This document shows positions 22,877-42,902 of a stretch of DNA of 64,000 bases, piece by piece (position 1 is the stretch's first letter; each line of letters starts with the position of its first letter). The stretch is from a virus (lineage: Duplodnaviria; Caudoviricetes). The position numbers were made by a program, and so were the translations under genes. The stretch is from the IMG/VR virus record IMGVR_UViG_3300035696_002928, positions 1 to 64,000 of that record. One strand, 5' to 3'. Under the pieces are notes generated by a model. The model was not told where the DNA came from. It worked only from the letters and a program-made list of their open reading frames with translations, and did not search any database.

Positions 22877-23202
22877 TCCTCCTCAAGAAAGCGACGCACC
22901 CGCCATCGCCAACAGTCCTCCCACCTGTGCCGCAGCCTCCAGCCCCGACGTTCGCATCGCCAGACACGGTAGTAAGTCAGCGGCGCGGCCAGACAGAAGG
23001 CCGTCGCCGCCCCGATGGCAACGCGCCGGGCTAGCAACGCTTCAACGGCCGCGTTGTTGACGATCCGCGGCCGGCGGACCAATCCGAGAAAGAGCCAGGG
23101 GCGAACGACCCGCCATCGGTAGCGGGGATAGACGTGGCCCACCCTCTCCCACGGCCCATCGGCCGTCTTGAACTCAATCTCGTAGCTGTCGATGTAGCGC
23201 AT
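22849..23202 (-). CDS. Hypothetical protein
   Basis: Coupled to the polA stop; Arg/Trp-rich. Confidence 0.5.
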   Translation of the reverse strand: MRYIDSYEIEFKTADGPWERVGHVYPRYRWRVVRPWLFLGLVRRPRIVNNAAVEALLARRVAIGAATAFCLAAPLTYYRVWRCERRGWRLRHRWEDCWRWRVRRFLEEEWESPEPPV

Positions 23203-25961
23203 TACAGCATCTCCGGGGCTCGAATCTTGACCGGGGCCGCACCGCCCTTCTTCTCGGCCCAGTTGTCCATGCCCTCGAACCAGGTCATGCCAATGAGCGG
23301 GACGTGGCCGCGGAACGATTCCACGACCTCGCGGACGCTGGCCGTAATCTCGGTGACGATCTCGGGCATGGCCACGACCATCAATTCGTCGTGGACGTTC
23401 AACGGGGCGAGGCGGAGCGGGTGGACGCCCGCCGGCTGCAAGTCCCACAGTTGCCGCTGGACCGATTTGGTGATTTCGGCACCAGGCGATTGAATCTCGT
23501 GGTTGGCCGCCGCCCGCATGTTGGCCGCCTGCATCTGGAAGGCGGCACCATAGAGAGCGCTGGCCACGGCCCCGCCGGCAGTCTGCACGCGGTCGCGGCG
23601 GACGACCTTGACCTTGCAGTTCCGCCAGTGTTTCGGCGGGTTGCGGGCCAGGTCGAAGAGGGCCTTGCAGATTTTGTTCTCCAGCGTGAAGTAGCGACGG
23701 AAGCCGAGGAAGGTTTCGATGTACTCGGCGGGCGTGGCCCAGACCACTGCGCTCCCGATCCCTGCGGGTTGCCGCATGGAGCAGAAGGCGTCAAAGGTCT
23801 TGGTGCGGGCCTTGCCGATGCCGGGGTAGCGCTTCACGAAGTCCGCGTAGGCCCGTTTCGCCCTTTCCTCCGTGACGCCCAACTTCTGCACCAGTGTGTT
23901 CCAATCGCCGCCGTACACCAGGGCGAACACGCCACGCTTGCCCTTGTCGTACCAGTCGTTGTCGCTGCCGCTGGACGCAATGACCTCGGCGTAGCTGAGG
24001 CCAGAGAGGGCCATGCCGAACAGGGCATGGAGCTTCTGCGGCGTCATGCCGGTTGTTTCGCACTCGCCGCACGGCGTCCCCTTCTTCTTGTCCCTGCCGG
24101 TGCCGCCGCACTTCGGGCAGGGGCCCTTCGTCACCAGGTCCTTGCGGAGGGCCGGGTCGTTGTAGACGGCATCGGCAATCGTCACCTCGAACGAATCGAA
24201 GTCGCCGCCGCAGAGGATCATGTTTTCCCAGAACAAGGGGAACATCTTGCGCACGTCCTTGGCGTGCTTGATGCCCTGCGGATTCAGGCCGTCCGCCCCG
24301 GCCATGCGGCTTGACAAGGTGCCGATCACCACGAAGCTGGCGTGGAACTTGCCGGCAAGCAGCAGCTTCTTGTAGAGTTCCACCTCCTTGGCGGCGATCT
24401 TCACGTCGAGGACTTCCTGCGCCCGGCGGGCCGCCGGATGCCTACCGGGCTGAAGGACCCCGGCACCGCCGCAACGGGCGCAGTCATGGAACTTGGCCGC
24501 CGAACCATTGGTCAACGTCTCGTAGGCCGTCTGCACCCGCTTGAAGTCCGCCGCATTGCCGTCATGGTCAGGATGATGCTGTTGGACCAGGCGGCGGTAC
24601 GCTGCGTTAATCGCGTCAGTGTCGGCCGCTGGTTCCAATCCAAGGGCGTCGAACGATTGCAGACAGGCGGCCCCGTCACAACGTCCACACGGCTCCGGCG
24701 TCGCGATCTCCCAGCGAGTAATGGCTTCCAAATTGCTCTTCTTCGTGGACTCTTCGAGGACAATCCTCTCGGTGAGGTCCATCGCCGCCGTGATATACGC
24801 CCGGACCTCCGGCGGCTTGTTGATGTTCACTGGGCTGTTGGCGACCACTGCCTCGGCCTTGGCGAGCAGTTCCCCCATGCCAGCCTTGTTGATCGAGAAG
24901 CCATGCCAGCGGACGACTGGGACCATGCAAGCCAGCGTCGAGTCGTTGTCGCCCGGCGGCGGGCAGCCGAAGTGCTTGTCGAGCGCCCGCGTGTAAACGA
25001 TGTCATCGTTGGCGTATTCGCGCGCATCTGCCCGGGTGGCCCAATGCTCGATGTGCTTGTCGATGACGCCCGGCCAGGCGTGGCCCAGCAGGGCATCTTC
25101 GCCTGCCTTGGGCCTCCGCCGCTTGGGGACTACCTCTTCGCCGTCATGCTCGTCGTCCAGAGTCAGGGCGGGGTCCGTCAGTTGCTCTTCGACGGCCACC
25201 TTGGCTGTTTTGCCCTTCTTCTTGCCCCACACCTCCCAATTCCGCTCCGGCGACGAGACGGCCAGTGCCGTGGGCGCATAGCCCAATTCGTAAGGCCGCC
25301 AAGCCGCCGAGGGCTCAACGTCCTTGAAATGGAACTTGGGCTTGAAGCCCATCGCGTGCTCAGCGAGGAACTTGAGGCCGCCAGCCGGGTTGAATCGCAG
25401 CACGACATCCTTGAAGTCGGTGTCGATGTCGCCGTAGCGATCCTTGCGGTCGAAGACTTGCCACTTTGGGGCATTCGGATCGGCCGACTTGGCGAAGTAG
25501 ATGTTGTCCAATTGGACACGGCCCTCTAGCTCAGAAGCGAGGGCATAGGCCAGCGCCGAGGGCACCCGCTTGATGCGGATGTCCTCGCGGGCCATGAGGG
25601 ACTGGTACGGTCCCTTGCGGGAATGAAGCATCAGGTCCAACGCCGCAGCCGGCTTGACGCACGGCCCATCCTGCCCCTGGGGCTCCAAGAGAGCGATCTC
25701 GTTGACGTGCTCCCGTGGAATCCAATCCGGGTCCGCAAGGCGGAAGATGGTGTAGGTCTTGACGATGTGGAACCAGTCAAAGGAGAGGTTGAAGCCCACG
25801 ACCGTGTGCTCGGTCAGCCATTCGATCAGGCGCAGCGTTTCGCGGATCGGCCGCCGCCAGACCTCGTGGAGCTGGATCGGGCCATCTTCCTCGGCGTACT
25901 GCAACAGCACCATCATGCTGTGCAAGCCGCAGGTCTCGCTGTCGATATAGACCTTGCTCAT
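23202..25961 (-). CDS. polA: Family A DNA polymerase with 3'-5' exonuclease domain, inserted J-domain and two Zn-finger insertions
   Basis: Exo I YIDSET, Exo II GFNLSFD, Exo III YANDD; motif A GDFDSFE, motif B KGKRGVFALVYG, motif C VHDE. Confidence 0.92.
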   Translation of the reverse strand: MSKVYIDSETCGLHSMMVLLQYAEEDGPIQLHEVWRRPIRETLRLIEWLTEHTVVGFNLSFDWFHIVKTYTIFRLADPDWIPREHVNEIALLEPQGQDGPCVKPAAALDLMLHSRKGPYQSLMAREDIRIKRVPSALAYALASELEGRVQLDNIYFAKSADPNAPKWQVFDRKDRYGDIDTDFKDVVLRFNPAGGLKFLAEHAMGFKPKFHFKDVEPSAAWRPYELGYAPTALAVSSPERNWEVWGKKKGKTAKVAVEEQLTDPALTLDDEHDGEEVVPKRRRPKAGEDALLGHAWPGVIDKHIEHWATRADAREYANDDIVYTRALDKHFGCPPPGDNDSTLACMVPVVRWHGFSINKAGMGELLAKAEAVVANSPVNINKPPEVRAYITAAMDLTERIVLEESTKKSNLEAITRWEIATPEPCGRCDGAACLQSFDALGLEPAADTDAINAAYRRLVQQHHPDHDGNAADFKRVQTAYETLTNGSAAKFHDCARCGGAGVLQPGRHPAARRAQEVLDVKIAAKEVELYKKLLLAGKFHASFVVIGTLSSRMAGADGLNPQGIKHAKDVRKMFPLFWENMILCGGDFDSFEVTIADAVYNDPALRKDLVTKGPCPKCGGTGRDKKKGTPCGECETTGMTPQKLHALFGMALSGLSYAEVIASSGSDNDWYDKGKRGVFALVYGGDWNTLVQKLGVTEERAKRAYADFVKRYPGIGKARTKTFDAFCSMRQPAGIGSAVVWATPAEYIETFLGFRRYFTLENKICKALFDLARNPPKHWRNCKVKVVRRDRVQTAGGAVASALYGAAFQMQAANMRAAANHEIQSPGAEITKSVQRQLWDLQPAGVHPLRLAPLNVHDELMVVAMPEIVTEITASVREVVESFRGHVPLIGMTWFEGMDNWAEKKGGAAPVKIRAPEML

Positions 25962-26959: not shown

Positions 26960-27844
26960 TTACTGAATCAGCGATTCTTCGTGAGCTAGAGTTGCTGCTT
27001 GAATATCTTCTTCAAGTTCCGCATCGCTGATGTACCCGGCGCACCACGCGCCCATCCGCGGGCCGAGTCCGGTAATTCCGCGTCCCAACATCTTGGCAAC
27101 CATCTTGTTGATCTCCGCCTTCGACTTGCGGTAGCCGAACTTGCGGCGGTACTTCAGGTCCAGATGTGCCAGTGAGGCGGTCTTGCCGTGCTCACGCTTG
27201 GCCTCCACGATCTTGCGGGCTGCGATGATCTGCTCATCGGGCGGCATGGCCGCCAGAACTTGAACGTGGACCATTCCAAGCAGTCCCGCGGCGGCGAGTT
27301 GTTGGACCTCTTCAGGAAGCGCCAGCAGCCGTTGACGGTCATGGACCCAGCGGGTCGGTCGTTTTAGCTCGGCAGCCGCCGCCCGCAGCGACACACCATC
27401 AGGAAACAGGCGGCCTAGTGCCTGGGCCTCTTCCAGCGGGTTCAGGTCTTTGCGTTCAAGGTTCTCGGTGAAGTTGAGGATGCGTGCTTGGCGTTCGGTA
27501 AGGTTATGCCGGATGCCTGCGGGTATGGTCTTCCAGTTGAGGATTTGGGCCACGGCGACGAAGCGCCGGTGTCCGGCCAGCAGGCGGTAGGCGTAGCCAT
27601 CCTGGTCCCGCGGCTCGACAATTACGGGGAATTGCAGGATGCTGTCCCGGATGCTGGCCGCCAGGTCCTCGACGGATTGCAACGTGAACGGCCCGCGGCA
27701 ATTGAACGTCTCGTCATAGAAAATGCTGGCGATCGGCACTGCGTAGGCGTCGTACTGCGGCAGGCGCTCTAGGTTGTCGTCACGCTTCGTTTCCCTGGCG
27801 ACTTCAACCTCTAGCCCAGCTTCGTGTTGCACGGCTTCGGCCAT
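26960..27844 (-). CDS. ParB/Spo0J-like protein
   Basis: LAASIRDSILQFPVIV, LLAGHRR, NFTENLERKDLNPLEEA, HTH. Confidence 0.85.
   Translation of the reverse strand: MAEAVQHEAGLEVEVARETKRDDNLERLPQYDAYAVPIASIFYDETFNCRGPFTLQSVEDLAASIRDSILQFPVIVEPRDQDGYAYRLLAGHRRFVAVAQILNWKTIPAGIRHNLTERQARILNFTENLERKDLNPLEEAQALGRLFPDGVSLRAAAAELKRPTRWVHDRQRLLALPEEVQQLAAAGLLGMVHVQVLAAMPPDEQIIAARKIVEAKREHGKTASLAHLDLKYRRKFGYRKSKAEINKMVAKMLGRGITGLGPRMGAWCAGYISDAELEEDIQAATLAHEESLIQ
26961..26993 (-). promoter_or_regulatory. Bipartite repeated motif copy 4 (inside the 3' end of the ParB-like gene)
   Basis: TACTGAATCAGCG-attcttcgtga-GCTAGAGTT. Confidence 0.75.
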
Positions 27845-28599
27845 GTTCCAAGCCACTCCAAGACGTTGGTGGTGCCGTCGTCTTCGATCTTGACATAGGT
27901 GTCGTTCTGACGAGCCCACGACCCGGTGTTGAAGTGGTAGTCGCCGATTCGACCTGGGGCGTGCGTATGGCCGTAGACCACCACGTCGCACTGCTTTTCC
28001 TGGCGGTACTTCTCGACGCCCTCGACCATCTCAGCCTGCCGGCCGTGCTGGAACGTCAGCGTTCTCCACAGCGTCAGGGCGCTTTCCAGCGTGCCGACAA
28101 ACTCGTCGGCGACGGCGTGGCCCTTGTGCGTGAACGGGCTCTTGTTGCGATCTTCCAGCATCCCGCTGATGATGGCCGTGATTTCGCCGACGCCGGGATT
28201 CGGCTCGCAGCAGTACGGATCGGCTTCGTGGCCGTGGAGGAAGGCAAACCTCCGGCCGCCGATGGTTTCCTCGAAGGGGTGGCAGGACCGCTGGAACAGC
28301 GGGTGGTCGATCATCAGCGGCGTGCCGATCAGCGGAGCCAGGGCGTTGTCATGGTTCCCTACAATCCACGTCGCCCCCATCGCATCGAGCCGATCCAACA
28401 GCAAGCGGTGCGCCACGATGGCAGCCCCAACCGGAACCTGCCAGAAATCGAGCAGATCGCCAAGAATCAGCAGCCGGCCGTGTTCGCTCTCCACCATGTC
28501 AAGGAACTTGCCGAACCGCACCTCCCGGTCCTGGAAGGCGAAGGCGTCGCGCGGGCCTTTATCGCAAGCGTGCAGGTCACTGACACAAAAATGCGGCAT
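27811..28599 (-). CDS. Calcineurin-like metallophosphoesterase (LpxH-like)
   Basis: VSDLH, LGDLLD, VGNHD, FLHGH, VYGHTH. Confidence 0.85.
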   Translation of the reverse strand: MPHFCVSDLHACDKGPRDAFAFQDREVRFGKFLDMVESEHGRLLILGDLLDFWQVPVGAAIVAHRLLLDRLDAMGATWIVGNHDNALAPLIGTPLMIDHPLFQRSCHPFEETIGGRRFAFLHGHEADPYCCEPNPGVGEITAIISGMLEDRNKSPFTHKGHAVADEFVGTLESALTLWRTLTFQHGRQAEMVEGVEKYRQEKQCDVVVYGHTHAPGRIGDYHFNTGSWARQNDTYVKIEDDGTTNVLEWLGTWPKPCNTKLG

Positions 28600-39197: not shown

Positions 39198-40088
39198 TCA
39201 GTCTTGCTTGTCGGGAATGTCCTTTCTCTTGCGGTTACGGTTCATCACGACCTGGCGTTGGTTCTCGACACTCGCGTGGTCTAGGTGCATCACCCAAGCC
39301 AATGCCGCCCGCCAGGCGTCTAGCAGCGTCTTGCAGTTCTCAGTGGCCAGGACCAGGGCCGAGACGGTCGGCCGCTCGTACTCCGGTTGCAGTTCCTTGA
39401 GGGGCCGCATGTACGGCTGCGGCTTGAAGTCCTCCGTGAAGAAGGCATCCAGCTTCCCTTGCCGCACGGCCTCTTGGAACTGCTTCAGGAATGCTTGGAC
39501 CGCGGCCCGGAACTCGCCCACCGGCATCGTCCGGGCCATGTCGAAGAACTGCGCCTGGTGCTTGTAGGGCACCCGCGCCAACTCATAGGCGGACCCCAAC
39601 GGCATCTCGCCACGGTCCACCGCCTTCTGATACTCCTTTTTCAGGTCCAGCAGCCCCAGGGTCTCGCTGACCCAGCCAGGGCTCTTGTGGAGGATGCGGG
39701 TGCTGATCTCTGCCAAGGTGGCCTCGGGGCGAGCCTCCATGATCCGTTTGATCTGACGGGCATAGTCCATCGGCGTCGTCTCTGGCCGGAGGGCGTTCGC
39801 CTGAATCTGAATCGCCAGCAGGTCGTCGTCCGTCAGGTCCTTGACGAGGCAGGGCGTGGTCGCCAAGCCGGCTTCACGGGACGCCGTGACACGGTACAGG
39901 CCATCCGCCACGTCGTATTTCCCCGGGAAGCGGGCGGACGGCCGGACCAGGATCGGGTTCAGGATGCCACGGTCGGCAATCGAGTCCCGCAACTCCAGGT
40001 AGGCCATCGCCCCGCGATTCACCAGCCGGAGCACCAGCGGCGGGTCCACAAGCTGATCGGTCGGAATCCATCGCAATTCGTCTGTCAC
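39198..40088 (-). CDS. ParB/Spo0J-like protein
   Basis: LRDSIADRGILNPILVR, ADGLYR, IQANALR, HTH. Confidence 0.82.
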   Translation of the reverse strand: MTDELRWIPTDQLVDPPLVLRLVNRGAMAYLELRDSIADRGILNPILVRPSARFPGKYDVADGLYRVTASREAGLATTPCLVKDLTDDDLLAIQIQANALRPETTPMDYARQIKRIMEARPEATLAEISTRILHKSPGWVSETLGLLDLKKEYQKAVDRGEMPLGSAYELARVPYKHQAQFFDMARTMPVGEFRAAVQAFLKQFQEAVRQGKLDAFFTEDFKPQPYMRPLKELQPEYERPTVSALVLATENCKTLLDAWRAALAWVMHLDHASVENQRQVVMNRNRKRKDIPDKQD

Positions 40089-40167
40089 ACCCTTACCAGA
40101 CGGCAGAACAAATCGTTTTTCTAAGACTCCTTAGAAAAATTGCCGCTTCTGCCGTCTGGTAAGGGTG
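40088..40167. repeat. Nested perfect inverted repeat (21-bp outer arms, 10-bp inner arms); bidirectional promoter/origin candidate
   Basis: CACCCTTACCAGACGGCAGAA (40088-40108) / TTCTGCCGTCTGGTAAGGGTG (40147-40167); TTTTTCTAAG (40116-40125) / CTTAGAAAAA (40130-40139). Confidence 0.9.
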
Positions 40168-40223
40168 GCACACCAATTACGCTCTTGAGCGATCGGCGTG
40201 TAAACGCGCTAAACGGAGCCACC

Positions 40224-42902
40224 ATGCCACAGGTAAGTGAAGCCCTGCAAGCCTTCCTGCAAGCCCGCAAGACGGCTGCGAACACCGATCTTCTTGATCG
40301 GTGGTCCATTGCAATGGAAACCCAGGTAAATGTCCTGGCCGGCGATGGCGAGCCCGTGGCCGGCAAGCGCAGCACCTGGACCAACGGCACGGAGACCTGG
40401 TGGTCCATCCGCATTCCGCACGACGCCAACTCGGAGCCAACCTGGGACGACTACAAGCTGACCTTCTCCTTCACCGAGCGTGCCGAGGGGATCGGCTGCA
40501 CGGGCTGGGACTGGCGGGCACGACGCTCCCGCCGGGTGGCTTTCGACTTTGACAGCCTCACGGCGCACGCCAAGGGCGTGGGGCTCAGCAACGAGGATTT
40601 GGAGAAAGTCAAGCAGGCCGCGATGCGGCTTCCCTATATTGAGGTGCGAAAAAGCACGGGTGGAACCGGCCTCCATCTCTATGCGTACTTTGACGACGCC
40701 GGCATCCCCACGGCCAATCACACGGAACACGCCGCCTTGGCCCGCTGCATCCTCGGCATGATGTCGAGCGAGTGCAACTTCGACTTCGCCTCGCAGATCG
40801 ACTGCTGCGGCGGGGTCATGTGGATATGGCATCGCAAGATGACGAAAGCCAATCAGGGGCTCGCCATCATCAAGCCGGCCACCAAGGTCCTTGCTGAAGC
40901 CGATCTGCCGGCCAACTGGCGCGACCATATCGAAGTGGTCACTCGCAAGCGTACAAAGGTCCGCATCAATGAGGTGGCGGAGGATGACCTGGACCCCTTC
41001 GAGGCATTGACCTCCAGCCGGAAGATCATCCCCCTCGACGACAGCCACAAAGCGCAGATCGCCGCGCTCCAGCATACCGGCTACACCACGCTCTGGGTCG
41101 CCGACCACCACCTCTTGCAGACGCACACCTGTGCGCTGAACGAGGTGATGGAAAATCAAGGCAAGGAGCTTGGGCTAGTCGGTGTCTTCGGGACCAATTC
41201 CCAAGGCCGGAATCCCGGCAACCCAAACTGTTTCCTGTTCCCTTTGCCGAACGGCGGCTGGCGGGTCTTCCGCTTTTCGCCCGGCGTAGCCGAAGCAAAC
41301 ACTTGGACGCAAGACGGCCAGGGGTGGACCACCTGCTACTTCAACCATCGGCCGGACCTGACCGCTGCCGCCAAACTTCGCGGTGGAATCGAGGACCCGG
41401 ACAAGGGCGGGTACACGTTCAAGACACCCGAGGACGCTATACACGTCGCCAAGATTCTCGGTGAAGAGAACATTGCCGTGGACCCGATGTTCGTGGATCG
41501 CCGCACGCTGCTCAAGCCGCACAAAGACGGCCGCCTCGTCATGGAGATCGAACGAAAGAGGGGTGACGCGGACCTGAAAGAGCCGGACGGCTGGCTGGCG
41601 AAGAAGACGAAGTGGGTCCGCGTCTTCGAGACCGTCGTTACCGACAAGAAGAACGACGACCTCGGTTTGACGGAGTACGACAATCTGCTGCGTGCCGTCG
41701 AAACCTCCGCCAAGCAATTCGTCGGCTGGGTCGTCCACAAGGATAAGGAATGGGTTGGCGAACCCGCGGCCAACGTGAAGATGCTGCTGCAAAATATCGG
41801 CAATGCCAAGGATGCCGCCGAGTGCATCATGGGCGGAGCCGTTGCGAAAGGGTGGCGGCTGGTCAGCCTGCCCTTCCATGCAGAATACCCCGGCGGCCGG
41901 CAGTGGAACTTGGATGCCGCCCAATTCTTGTACTTGCCAGCGGCCTTGGAACCGGACACGACGCCCGAGCATCCCCACTGGGACATGATCTTCGAGCACA
42001 TCGGCGTCGAATTGACAGTGGCCCTGCGTGATCTGCCCTGGGCACAGCAGGCCAACATCAGGACCGGAGCCGACTACTTGAAGACATGGGTGGCGTGCGC
42101 CTTCCGCGAGCCTTTCGAGCCACTGCCCTACTTGTTCTTGTGGGGCAACGAGAAAGCCGGCAAGAGCGTTCTCCACGAGGCTTTGAGCCTCTTGGTGACA
42201 AAAGGCGTTGTCAAGGCGGACAAGGCCCTTACCAACAACAACGAGTTCAACGGCGAGCTGGCCGGGGCAGTCATTTGTGCCGTGGAAGAAAAGGATGTCT
42301 CCCTCACACCCGGCGCATACGCCCGCATCAAGGAGTACACCACCGCCACCACGTTGTCCATCCGCCAGATGCGGCGAGATGTCTACTCGGTCCCCAACAC
42401 CACCCACTGGATTCAGACAGCCAACAAGCAGTCCGCGTGCCCCGTGATGTCTGGCGACACCCGCATCACGGTCATCGAAGTTGGCGACCTTCTCACTGAG
42501 CAGCAAGTTCCCAAGAAGACCATGCTGCAAAAACTGACCGCCGAGGCCCCGCACTTCATGCACACGCTCTTGAACATGCCGCTTCCGCCACTGTTCGACC
42601 GCCTGCGGCTACCGATGGTGTCCACCGCGAGCAAGACCAGAAGTGAAGAGCTGCACAAGACCGACTTGCAACGCTTCCTGGAGGAATGCTGCCAGGCCCG
42701 AAAGGAGACCTGCTCGCTGCGTTTCGGCGAGTTCTTCGACGCCTTCCAAAAATGGCTCGACGCCGGAGAAAAGCACCTGTGGTCCAAGATCAAGGTGTCC
42801 CGGGAGATGCCGAACCGGCACCGGATCATCCGGGGGCACGCAGGGGACCGCTACGTCCAAGACCTGGTGTTCAAGGCCCCTGTGGAGGCTACACCATGTT
42901 GA
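40224..42902 (+). CDS. Primase-helicase (Prim-Pol-like N-terminus, SF3/D5-like P-loop C-terminus)
   Basis: FDFD, KSTGGTGLHLY; WGNEKAGKS Walker A, CAVEE Walker B, WIQTAN. Confidence 0.8.
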   Translation: MPQVSEALQAFLQARKTAANTDLLDRWSIAMETQVNVLAGDGEPVAGKRSTWTNGTETWWSIRIPHDANSEPTWDDYKLTFSFTERAEGIGCTGWDWRARRSRRVAFDFDSLTAHAKGVGLSNEDLEKVKQAAMRLPYIEVRKSTGGTGLHLYAYFDDAGIPTANHTEHAALARCILGMMSSECNFDFASQIDCCGGVMWIWHRKMTKANQGLAIIKPATKVLAEADLPANWRDHIEVVTRKRTKVRINEVAEDDLDPFEALTSSRKIIPLDDSHKAQIAALQHTGYTTLWVADHHLLQTHTCALNEVMENQGKELGLVGVFGTNSQGRNPGNPNCFLFPLPNGGWRVFRFSPGVAEANTWTQDGQGWTTCYFNHRPDLTAAAKLRGGIEDPDKGGYTFKTPEDAIHVAKILGEENIAVDPMFVDRRTLLKPHKDGRLVMEIERKRGDADLKEPDGWLAKKTKWVRVFETVVTDKKNDDLGLTEYDNLLRAVETSAKQFVGWVVHKDKEWVGEPAANVKMLLQNIGNAKDAAECIMGGAVAKGWRLVSLPFHAEYPGGRQWNLDAAQFLYLPAALEPDTTPEHPHWDMIFEHIGVELTVALRDLPWAQQANIRTGADYLKTWVACAFREPFEPLPYLFLWGNEKAGKSVLHEALSLLVTKGVVKADKALTNNNEFNGELAGAVICAVEEKDVSLTPGAYARIKEYTTATTLSIRQMRRDVYSVPNTTHWIQTANKQSACPVMSGDTRITVIEVGDLLTEQQVPKKTMLQKLTAEAPHFMHTLLNMPLPPLFDRLRLPMVSTASKTRSEELHKTDLQRFLEECCQARKETCSLRFGEFFDAFQKWLDAGEKHLWSKIKVSREMPNRHRIIRGHAGDRYVQDLVFKAPVEATPC

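Follow-up and report, generated by a model that had tools for sequence, protein, structure and literature searches.

A J-domain inserted in the thumb of a phage family A DNA polymerase suggests recruitment of the host Hsp70 chaperone to the replication machinery

Viruses borrow the Hsp70 chaperone of the cell for their own replication: phages lambda and P1 do so through the host DnaJ, SV40 through a J-domain that its initiator helicase carries. That Hsp70 acts on replication complexes is an established principle. The DNA polymerase of phage T7, gp5, takes up another host protein, thioredoxin, through a thioredoxin-binding domain with basic loops (residues 262-338, between helices H and H1). 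A thioredoxin-binding domain of at least 50 amino acids is found in only approximately 29% of T7-like PolAs (PMC10201439). Here, we describe a family A DNA polymerase of a phage in which a J-domain is inserted into a cysteine-rich loop of the thumb. The gene lies in a stretch of 64,000 nucleotides, positions 1 to 64,000 of the IMG/VR record IMGVR_UViG_3300035696_002928 (hereafter the window, to which all coordinates refer), and its layout suggests that the polymerase calls the DnaK/Hsp70 chaperone to the replication machinery.

An initial annotation of the window had proposed a J-domain with an intact HPD tripeptide at 24459-24689, bracketed by two CxxCxG half-sites. This interval is exactly C425-G501 of the 919-residue polymerase and consists of CGRCDG, an insert of 63 residues and CARCGGAG. 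Residues 431-493 form a genuine J-domain. Their segment 437-487 is matched by Pfam DnaJ (PF00226) with an E-value of 2.9e-11 and 43.7 bits (cut-off 27.8), and when all six frames of the 84.6-kb record were searched, this was the only J-domain to emerge (48.6 bits). An AlphaFold2 model built with an alignment of 62 sequences (mean predicted local distance difference test (pLDDT) 83, predicted template modelling score 0.79) has helix I at residues 430-439, helix II at 448-462, helix III at 470-484 and a short helix IV at 487-492, with a pLDDT of 81-91 for helices I-III and 75 for helix IV. The HPD tripeptide falls in the loop between helices II and III. At the DNA level, the insert is a clean in-frame indel of 180 nucleotides relative to relatives that lack the J-domain (J-less relatives), with well-aligned flanks. 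The domain is net acidic (5 K/R versus 9 D/E). No glycine/phenylalanine-rich (G/F) region, four-repeat zinc-finger domain or C-terminal client-binding domains were found behind it, so the protein is not a class A DnaJ, and the match to the Pfam family DnaJ_CXXCXGXG sits in the polymerase fingers, away from the J-domain. An intein or homing element was ruled out, given that the insert has just 63 residues and holds neither nuclease nor splicing residues.

The J-domain is embedded in a putative zinc knuckle. Alignment with 15 and then 61 relatives (62 sequences including the protein itself) shows a conserved EPCGRCEG-xP-GCARCGGTG motif in which C425, C428, C494 and C497 are invariant. In the J-less relatives the two CxxC pairs are just 2-4 residues apart, and it is this short loop that is swapped for 63 residues here. 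The idea that the two half-sites form one predicted zinc finger holding the J-domain is therefore well supported. In the model, three short helices (383-414) precede the insert, and a long helix (509-536) follows it directly and leads into the motif GKFHASF..GTLSS. When PDB sequences were searched with a profile, this motif was aligned with QGRLHTNF..GTVSGRMSS of the phage G20c Pol I and with TGRVHTSY..TGRLSS of Klenow, and in Pol I enzymes the helix before the GR(L/V)HT..TGRLSS motif is thumb helix I. Since helix 509-536 follows the insert directly and leads into the equivalent motif, the model supports a location of knuckle and J-domain at the tip of the thumb, adjoining helix I, in line with the thumb position first claimed. 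A local hhalign comparison with T7 gp5 sets GKFHASF opposite GKIHGSV and the insert opposite T7 residues ~311-360, at a probability of 4.6% that makes it a coarse anchor only.

The knuckle region is a hot spot of other insertions too, for example double knuckles and longer loops. One clade, consisting of the IMG/VR contigs L007 (4099-4599) and L008 (4102-4593) and approximately 20 J-less relatives, has a double knuckle: two extra upstream CxxC motifs (CPxCKGKG..CPxCxG) raise the number of CxxC repeats at the thumb tip to four, and the J-domain of L007 and L008 sits between repeats 3 and 4.

We surveyed 115 relatives from IMG/VR (80 kept), 126 from metagenomes (80 kept) and 19 from GTDB, sets that partly overlap. 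Across these surveys the J-insert is rare and patchy, with five distinct cases, all at the same site and missing from close relatives. Besides the window, the IMG/VR survey yielded L002, L007 and L008, which were scanned with Pfam DnaJ and all exceed the cut-off (42.2, 35.1 and 32.6 bits), and a scan using the J-inserts as query added the fifth case, L082. Among the 80 metagenome relatives kept, a J-domain was found only in the 147-kb parent contig of L002, and none was found in the 19 GTDB relatives, which are mostly from Planctomycetota metagenome-assembled genomes (MAGs). The five inserts are 43-58% identical pairwise; for the polymerase backbones, identity is 89-91% inside a clade and approximately 72% between the two clades with J-domains. 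In trees built without the knuckle columns the J-bearing rows are never sisters, and the nearest relatives of the window protein and of L002 (L052 and L004; 93% identical) have no insert. An approximately unbiased (AU) test, applied to groups chosen after the tree was seen, rejected a single clade of all five (p = 1.5e-44) as well as a single clade of the three clade 1 members (p = 0.0014), and did not reject a grouping of L007 with L008 (p = 0.32). The patchy placement and the rejections therefore indicate at least three or four events in which the insert was gained, lost or exchanged. As polymerases of 93% identity do without it, the insert is an accessory and not a core part of the replisome. 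Its GC content at third codon positions is 0.71, compared with 0.84 +/- 0.06 in 63-codon windows of the gene, which at approximately 2 standard deviations below is a weak hint of a different history. In L082 (1654-3852, plus strand), an in-frame deletion of approximately 196 residues joins LHALFGMAL to MLAPLNVHDELM and takes away motif B and most of the fingers; either the polymerase is dead and its prophage in decay, or the assembly is at fault.

The origin of the insert was pursued in several searches. Five J-less close relatives have no J-domain elsewhere in their records, which are 55-77% complete, so there is no sign of a fusion that replaced a separate gene. A word search of 5.8 billion proteins with residues 418-512 gave no match at E <= 0.001, the query being too short for a database of this size. 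With HMMER, the 63-residue J part gave 4,322 generic J-domain matches among 1.84 billion cluster representatives; the best are small proteins, approximately 55-60% identical, and no polymerase-sized match with a J-domain at the right position was among them, presumably because clusters at 50% identity merge polymerases with and without the domain. No donor of the J-domain was found in these cluster representatives or in the genome of a stand-in host, a Planctomycetia MAG. In the latter, searching with the phage J profile gave just two matches, both of them weak (40.5 and 36.1 bits), and a recent host origin is therefore not supported.

The pattern of conservation within the insert points to Hsp70. 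The HPD tripeptide is dispensable for the fold of a J-domain, and its retention in all five copies therefore argues for use. Also invariant in the five inserts are Y455, R456, L458, G468, A470, F473, K474, A479 and E481, next to H463, P464 and D465 of the tripeptide itself. In DnaJ, residues Y25, K26, H33, P34, D35 and F47 contact the nucleotide-binding domain (NBD) and the linker of DnaK (PMC13012618), and their equivalents here are Y455, R456, H463, P464, D465 and F473. These contact residues are kept in inserts that have otherwise diverged far more than the polymerase backbones within a clade, which speaks for the use of Hsp70. In line with this, no Hsp70 gene of the phage's own turned up when all six frames of the 84.6-kb record were searched.

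We then predicted a complex of the thumb fragment 375-540 with ATP and residues 1-605 of the DnaK of the stand-in host, whose MAG carries an 88%-identical prophage polymerase. This DnaK is canonical (TIGR02350, 953 bits), and four further Planctomycetota DnaKs were used for the alignment. The complex scored 0.68 (runs of 0.70, 0.68 and 0.65), compared with 0.00 for the best control. The mark that it thereby passed was attained by 58 of the 80 solved complexes and by 2 of the 110 mismatched pairs. At least 95% of the contacts recur between runs, and the partner pLDDT is 81-82. Predicted contacts on the J side are helix II (452-460), the HPD region (463-466) and helix III (470-481), and on the DnaK side residues 209-212, the linker (385-390) and the beta part of the substrate-binding domain (SBD; 415-419 and 477-478); the HPD is predicted to touch linker residues 388-390. 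This predicted interface is the textbook J-DnaK interface and may partly be memory of solved complexes. Because a like complex has already been solved, the pass shows likeness rather than binding by this copy. The recruitment of host DnaK that the initial annotation had envisaged thus has support in silico only, from the kept contact residues and from a canonical interface that the model may have drawn from known structures.

From the sequence and the predicted complex, we propose a reading that we find fairly probable: as a J-domain protein of class C, the polymerase would recruit host Hsp70 either to itself or to partners in the replisome, the J-domain being an optional module for local chaperoning or remodelling. 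In such a scheme the J-domain, set in the 2-4-residue loop of the four-cysteine knuckle, would project from the thumb tip on a rigid stalk and bind host DnaK/Hsp70 in its ATP state, where NBD, linker and SBD meet. The HPD would then trigger ATP hydrolysis by Hsp70, which would close on a segment nearby, either in the polymerase itself or in a replisome partner. The outcome could be the folding and upkeep of a large polymerase, or the assembly and recycling of replisome contacts. The module would be a fast-evolving, host-adaptive accessory. The identity and the site of the domain, its conservation, its recurrence and its patchy distribution in the tree are demonstrated here, and from these we infer the binding of Hsp70, its client and the benefit.

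Several points weigh against this proposal. Near-identical polymerases function without the insert, so any benefit must be conditional. The conserved core residues of the J-domain partly reflect folding constraints, and helix II has just two basic residues, compared with approximately six in E. coli DnaJ. No client segment for DnaK was identified in the protein. The complex was modelled with a stand-in host DnaK and just a fragment of the polymerase, and its interface may echo solved DnaJ-DnaK structures. The stand-in host also has several Hsp70 paralogues, so the true partner may not be the canonical DnaK.

The initial annotation had gone further and named DnaK as a possible processivity factor or replisome remodeller, with thioredoxin in T7 gp5 as a parallel. 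In the processivity reading, DnaK-ADP, once recruited by the J-domain, would remain on a polymerase segment as a clamp and form a lid over the exiting duplex, so that processivity rises. The insert does sit at the thumb tip, in the same subdomain as the T7 thioredoxin-binding domain, both modules are optional in their polymerase families, and the predicted J-DnaK interface is canonical. However, the J-domain is acidic, unlike the basic loops of the T7 domain, to which it has no sequence relation, and it adjoins helix I instead of lying between H and H1. Contacts between J-domains and Hsp70 are moreover transient and specific for the ATP state; for a clamp to be stable, a dedicated client site would have to exist, and no such site was identified. 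With 93%-identical polymerases lacking the insert, the claim is unsupported, and we regard a processivity role as unlikely. A bolder form of the idea, which we would likewise not expect to be correct, has Hsp70 as a working part of the replisome, for processivity or fork clearing, and the 60-codon J cassette moving by recombination across the knuckle flanks as a host-chaperone plug-in.

Alternatively, the J-domain could be a tolerated passenger, a small and stable domain that is kept because it folds well and has no role with Hsp70. The insert is indeed rare, patchy and missing in close relatives, the copies diverge much faster than the polymerase, and the knuckle accepts other insertions as well. 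This is hard to reconcile with an HPD that folding does not require and with further Hsp70-contact residues that remain invariant in five copies otherwise approximately 50% identical, nor would a passenger be expected to persist in two polymerase clades that are 72% identical. We consider it decidedly unlikely.

The domain could also serve host take-over or counter-defence, by titrating or redirecting DnaK, for instance so that the heat-shock sigma factor is stabilised, or by competing with the host DnaJ on which some defence sensors depend, its placement in the polymerase being incidental. As far as they are cited in PMC12619734, there are precedents in Rki, a free-standing J-protein of phage RB43 that stabilises a heat-shock sigma factor (PMC3486835), and in the DnaJ-dependent defence bNACHT25 (PMC12169576), and many phage contigs encode J-domains in other contexts. 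Here, all five copies are in exactly the same polymerase loop and nowhere else in the records searched, which ties their function to the polymerase, and a decoy would serve equally well as a separate small gene. We give this explanation very little weight.

An assembly chimera or sequencing artefact is refuted, and its probability practically nil, since the indel is clean and in frame, diverged J-domains occupy the same site in the four further IMG/VR contigs, which come from other samples, and exact unitigs bridge the junctions. An exact 630-nucleotide Logan unitig from run X1, an independent assembly, spans 24360-24989 with no mismatch, and an exact 229-nucleotide unitig from a run of another study spans 24480-24708, covering the whole insert and the N-terminal junction and extending just 3 nucleotides past the C-terminal one. 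The window is a metagenome-derived provirus record, and no evidence favouring a chimera was found. The runs that contain this stretch are peat metagenomes, with no RNA dataset among those listed. In run X1, one contig skips 24412-24721, and in three runs a contig shares the J-domain to approximately residue 490 (loose end at 24491) and then continues with different sequence. The skipping contig and the loose ends at the knuckle suggest co-occurring variants in the same peat samples.

The polymerase that carries the insert looks active, because its catalytic motifs are all invariant. It matches Pfam DNA_pol_A with 53.3 bits (cut-off 34.3), as expected from the family assigned to it at the outset. 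The PHROGs matches are phrog_17 'DNA polymerase' and several J-containing families without known function, and a Foldseek search with the whole model places phage G20c Pol I, Bst Pol I and Klenow on top (E-values of 6e-13 to 1e-10, probability 1.00). Exonuclease motifs I-III and polymerase motifs A, B and C are all present with their catalytic carboxylates (Table 1). Among 62 relatives, the exonuclease residues D7, N58, D62, Y316 and D320 are conserved and E9 is nearly invariant, and of the polymerase residues D587, E592, K675, Y683, G684, H857 and E859 are conserved, with D858 nearly invariant. One deviation lies in the motif B region (23907-23951, minus strand): Pol I has an arginine four residues before the motif B lysine, and the residue here is Tyr671, invariant across the whole polymerase family.

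Table 1 Features of the polymerase gene, with positions in the window
Feature	Position	Strand	Basis
Family A DNA polymerase gene, 919 aa, with N-terminal 3'-5' exonuclease	23202..25961	-	Open reading frame, Pfam, PHROG, Foldseek
First half of putative thumb zinc knuckle, C425-G-R-C428-D-G	24672..24689	-	C425, C428 invariant in 62 sequences; beta strand 419-424 in model
J-domain insert, residues 431-493, 63 aa, helices I-IV	24483..24671	-	Pfam DnaJ, AlphaFold2 helices, 180-nt indel, same site in L002, L007, L008, L082
HPD tripeptide, H463 P464 D465	24567..24575	-	Read in sequence; invariant in five J-bearing polymerases
Second half of putative thumb zinc knuckle, C494-A-R-C497-G-G-A-G	24459..24482	-	C494, C497 invariant, R496, G501 nearly; beta strand 502-507 in model
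Long thumb helix, residues 509-536, Pol I helix I equivalent	24354..24437	-	AlphaFold2; GKFHASF..GTLSS directly after
Polymerase motif A, DFDSFEV, residues 587-593	24183..24203	-	D587, F588, F591, E592 invariant; aligns with Pol I DYSQIEL
Second CxxCxGxG pair, in fingers between motifs A and B (C615, C618, C631, C634; residues 615-638)	24048..24119	-	Weak Pfam DnaJ_CXXCXGXG match
Polymerase motif B, KGKRGVFALVYGG, residues 673-685	23907..23945	-	K675, F679, Y683, G684, G685 invariant; aligns with Pol I motif B
Polymerase motif C, NVHDELM, residues 855-861	23379..23399	-	N855, H857, E859 invariant, D858 nearly; aligns with Pol I VHDE

The match of DnaJ_CXXCXGXG to the fingers covers residues 615-650 and is sub-threshold, at 16.3 bits against a cut-off of 32.7; in the relatives L002 and P0040 it reaches 21.6 and 27.2 bits, both also below the cut-off. 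The length of this second cysteine stretch varies: it is missing in some clades and consists of four CxxC repeats in P0021, P0024, P0040 and P0058, and in three runs unitigs break at 24119. A highly charged linker (residues 251-290, 25100-25210 on the minus strand), acidic and then reading KRRRPK, lies between the exonuclease and polymerase parts with a pLDDT of 33-37; it occurs in some clades and is missing in others. Two relatives, P0067 and P0101, have an insertion of approximately 47 residues behind a PKHWR motif, between motifs B and C (alignment columns 943-990).

The record is an IMG/VR provirus of 84.6 kb, 83% complete by CheckV. Near the polymerase are two ParB-like genes, a Clp-type protease, DNA methylases, an ATP-dependent ligase and a DUF5906 primase-helicase (40140-42902), as well as a tape measure protein and a discoidin-domain protein, a neighbourhood that indicates a tailed phage. 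The phage also has an SSB protein. The two ParB-like proteins (ParB_N and HTH_ParB; 26960-27991 and 39198-40088, both on the minus strand) may point to a plasmid-like prophage stage. The polymerase has at least roughly 2,000 homologues, and the named sources among the matches listed are Planctomycetota MAGs (Pirellulales, Thermoguttaceae). The 88%-identical copy is on a 188-kb Planctomycetia contig. No match was found among 50,697 deposited phage genomes with tblastn or megablast. We take the phage to be an uncultured, tailed and probably temperate phage of Planctomycetota, and the gene to encode its replicative family A polymerase. Distant relatives (L173, L179 and L180; 41-59% identical) are in MAGs labelled Anaerolinea, Gammaproteobacteria and Methanomassiliicoccales; either the host range is wider or these viral contigs were binned wrongly.

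That a DNA polymerase is itself a J-domain protein is a layout undescribed in the papers searched. Full-text literature searches for J-domain or DnaJ together with DNA polymerase, phage or thumb found no relevant description, and neither the 2023 reclassification of PolA (PMC10201439) nor a 2026 survey of bacterial polymerases (PMC12926913) mentions DnaJ or a J-domain, in keeping with the initial annotation, which knew of no described fusion of this kind. If the domain works, a mutation of HPD to QPD would give a handle on the role of Hsp70 at the replication fork. The insert would also be a second kind of host-factor module in the thumb, beside the T7 thioredoxin-binding domain, and would mark the loop of the zinc knuckle as a docking site for swappable domains. 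Natural enzymes with and without the J-domain, 89-93% identical outside the knuckle region, form a ready comparison set.

The closest known systems each share part of this arrangement. E. coli DnaJ has the same J fold and the same Hsp70-contact residues, and CxxCxGxG-type cysteine motifs occur in both proteins; DnaJ has in addition a G/F region and client-binding domains that the polymerase lacks, and the cysteine motifs of the polymerase are sub-threshold. In lambda and P1 replication, host DnaJ, DnaK and GrpE act in trans, whereas here the J-domain is present in cis on the phage enzyme. The polymerase of mitochondrial DNA (mtDNA), Pol gamma, is a family A enzyme. The mitochondrial Hsp40 Mdj1 acts in mtDNA maintenance (PMC3750215), so that there too a J-domain protein works where a family A polymerase replicates, but Mdj1 belongs to class A, binds the nucleoid as a protein of its own and is not fused to the polymerase. 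Rki of phage RB43, according to the same citation as above, also has a J-domain for host DnaK, but it is small, stands alone and has sigma-32 as its target.

T7 gp5, which belongs to the T7-like PolAs (cluster 5 of PMC10201439), likewise has an optional and patchy insertion at the thumb tip for an abundant host protein. The two insertions lie in the same subdomain and in the same interval between anchors but in different loops, the one described here adjoining helix I. They have no relation in sequence or fold, one being a J-domain in a zinc knuckle and the other an extended loop; the presumed partner is Hsp70 here and thioredoxin in T7, and the polymerase described here belongs to a separate clade associated with Planctomycetota. 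SV40 large T antigen is, like this polymerase, a viral replication protein with its own HPD J-domain for host Hsp70, and the L002 copy of the insert even has the HPDKGG form. SV40, a eukaryotic virus, bears the J-domain at the N-terminus of its initiator helicase, whereas here it is internal, within the knuckle of a bacteriophage polymerase.

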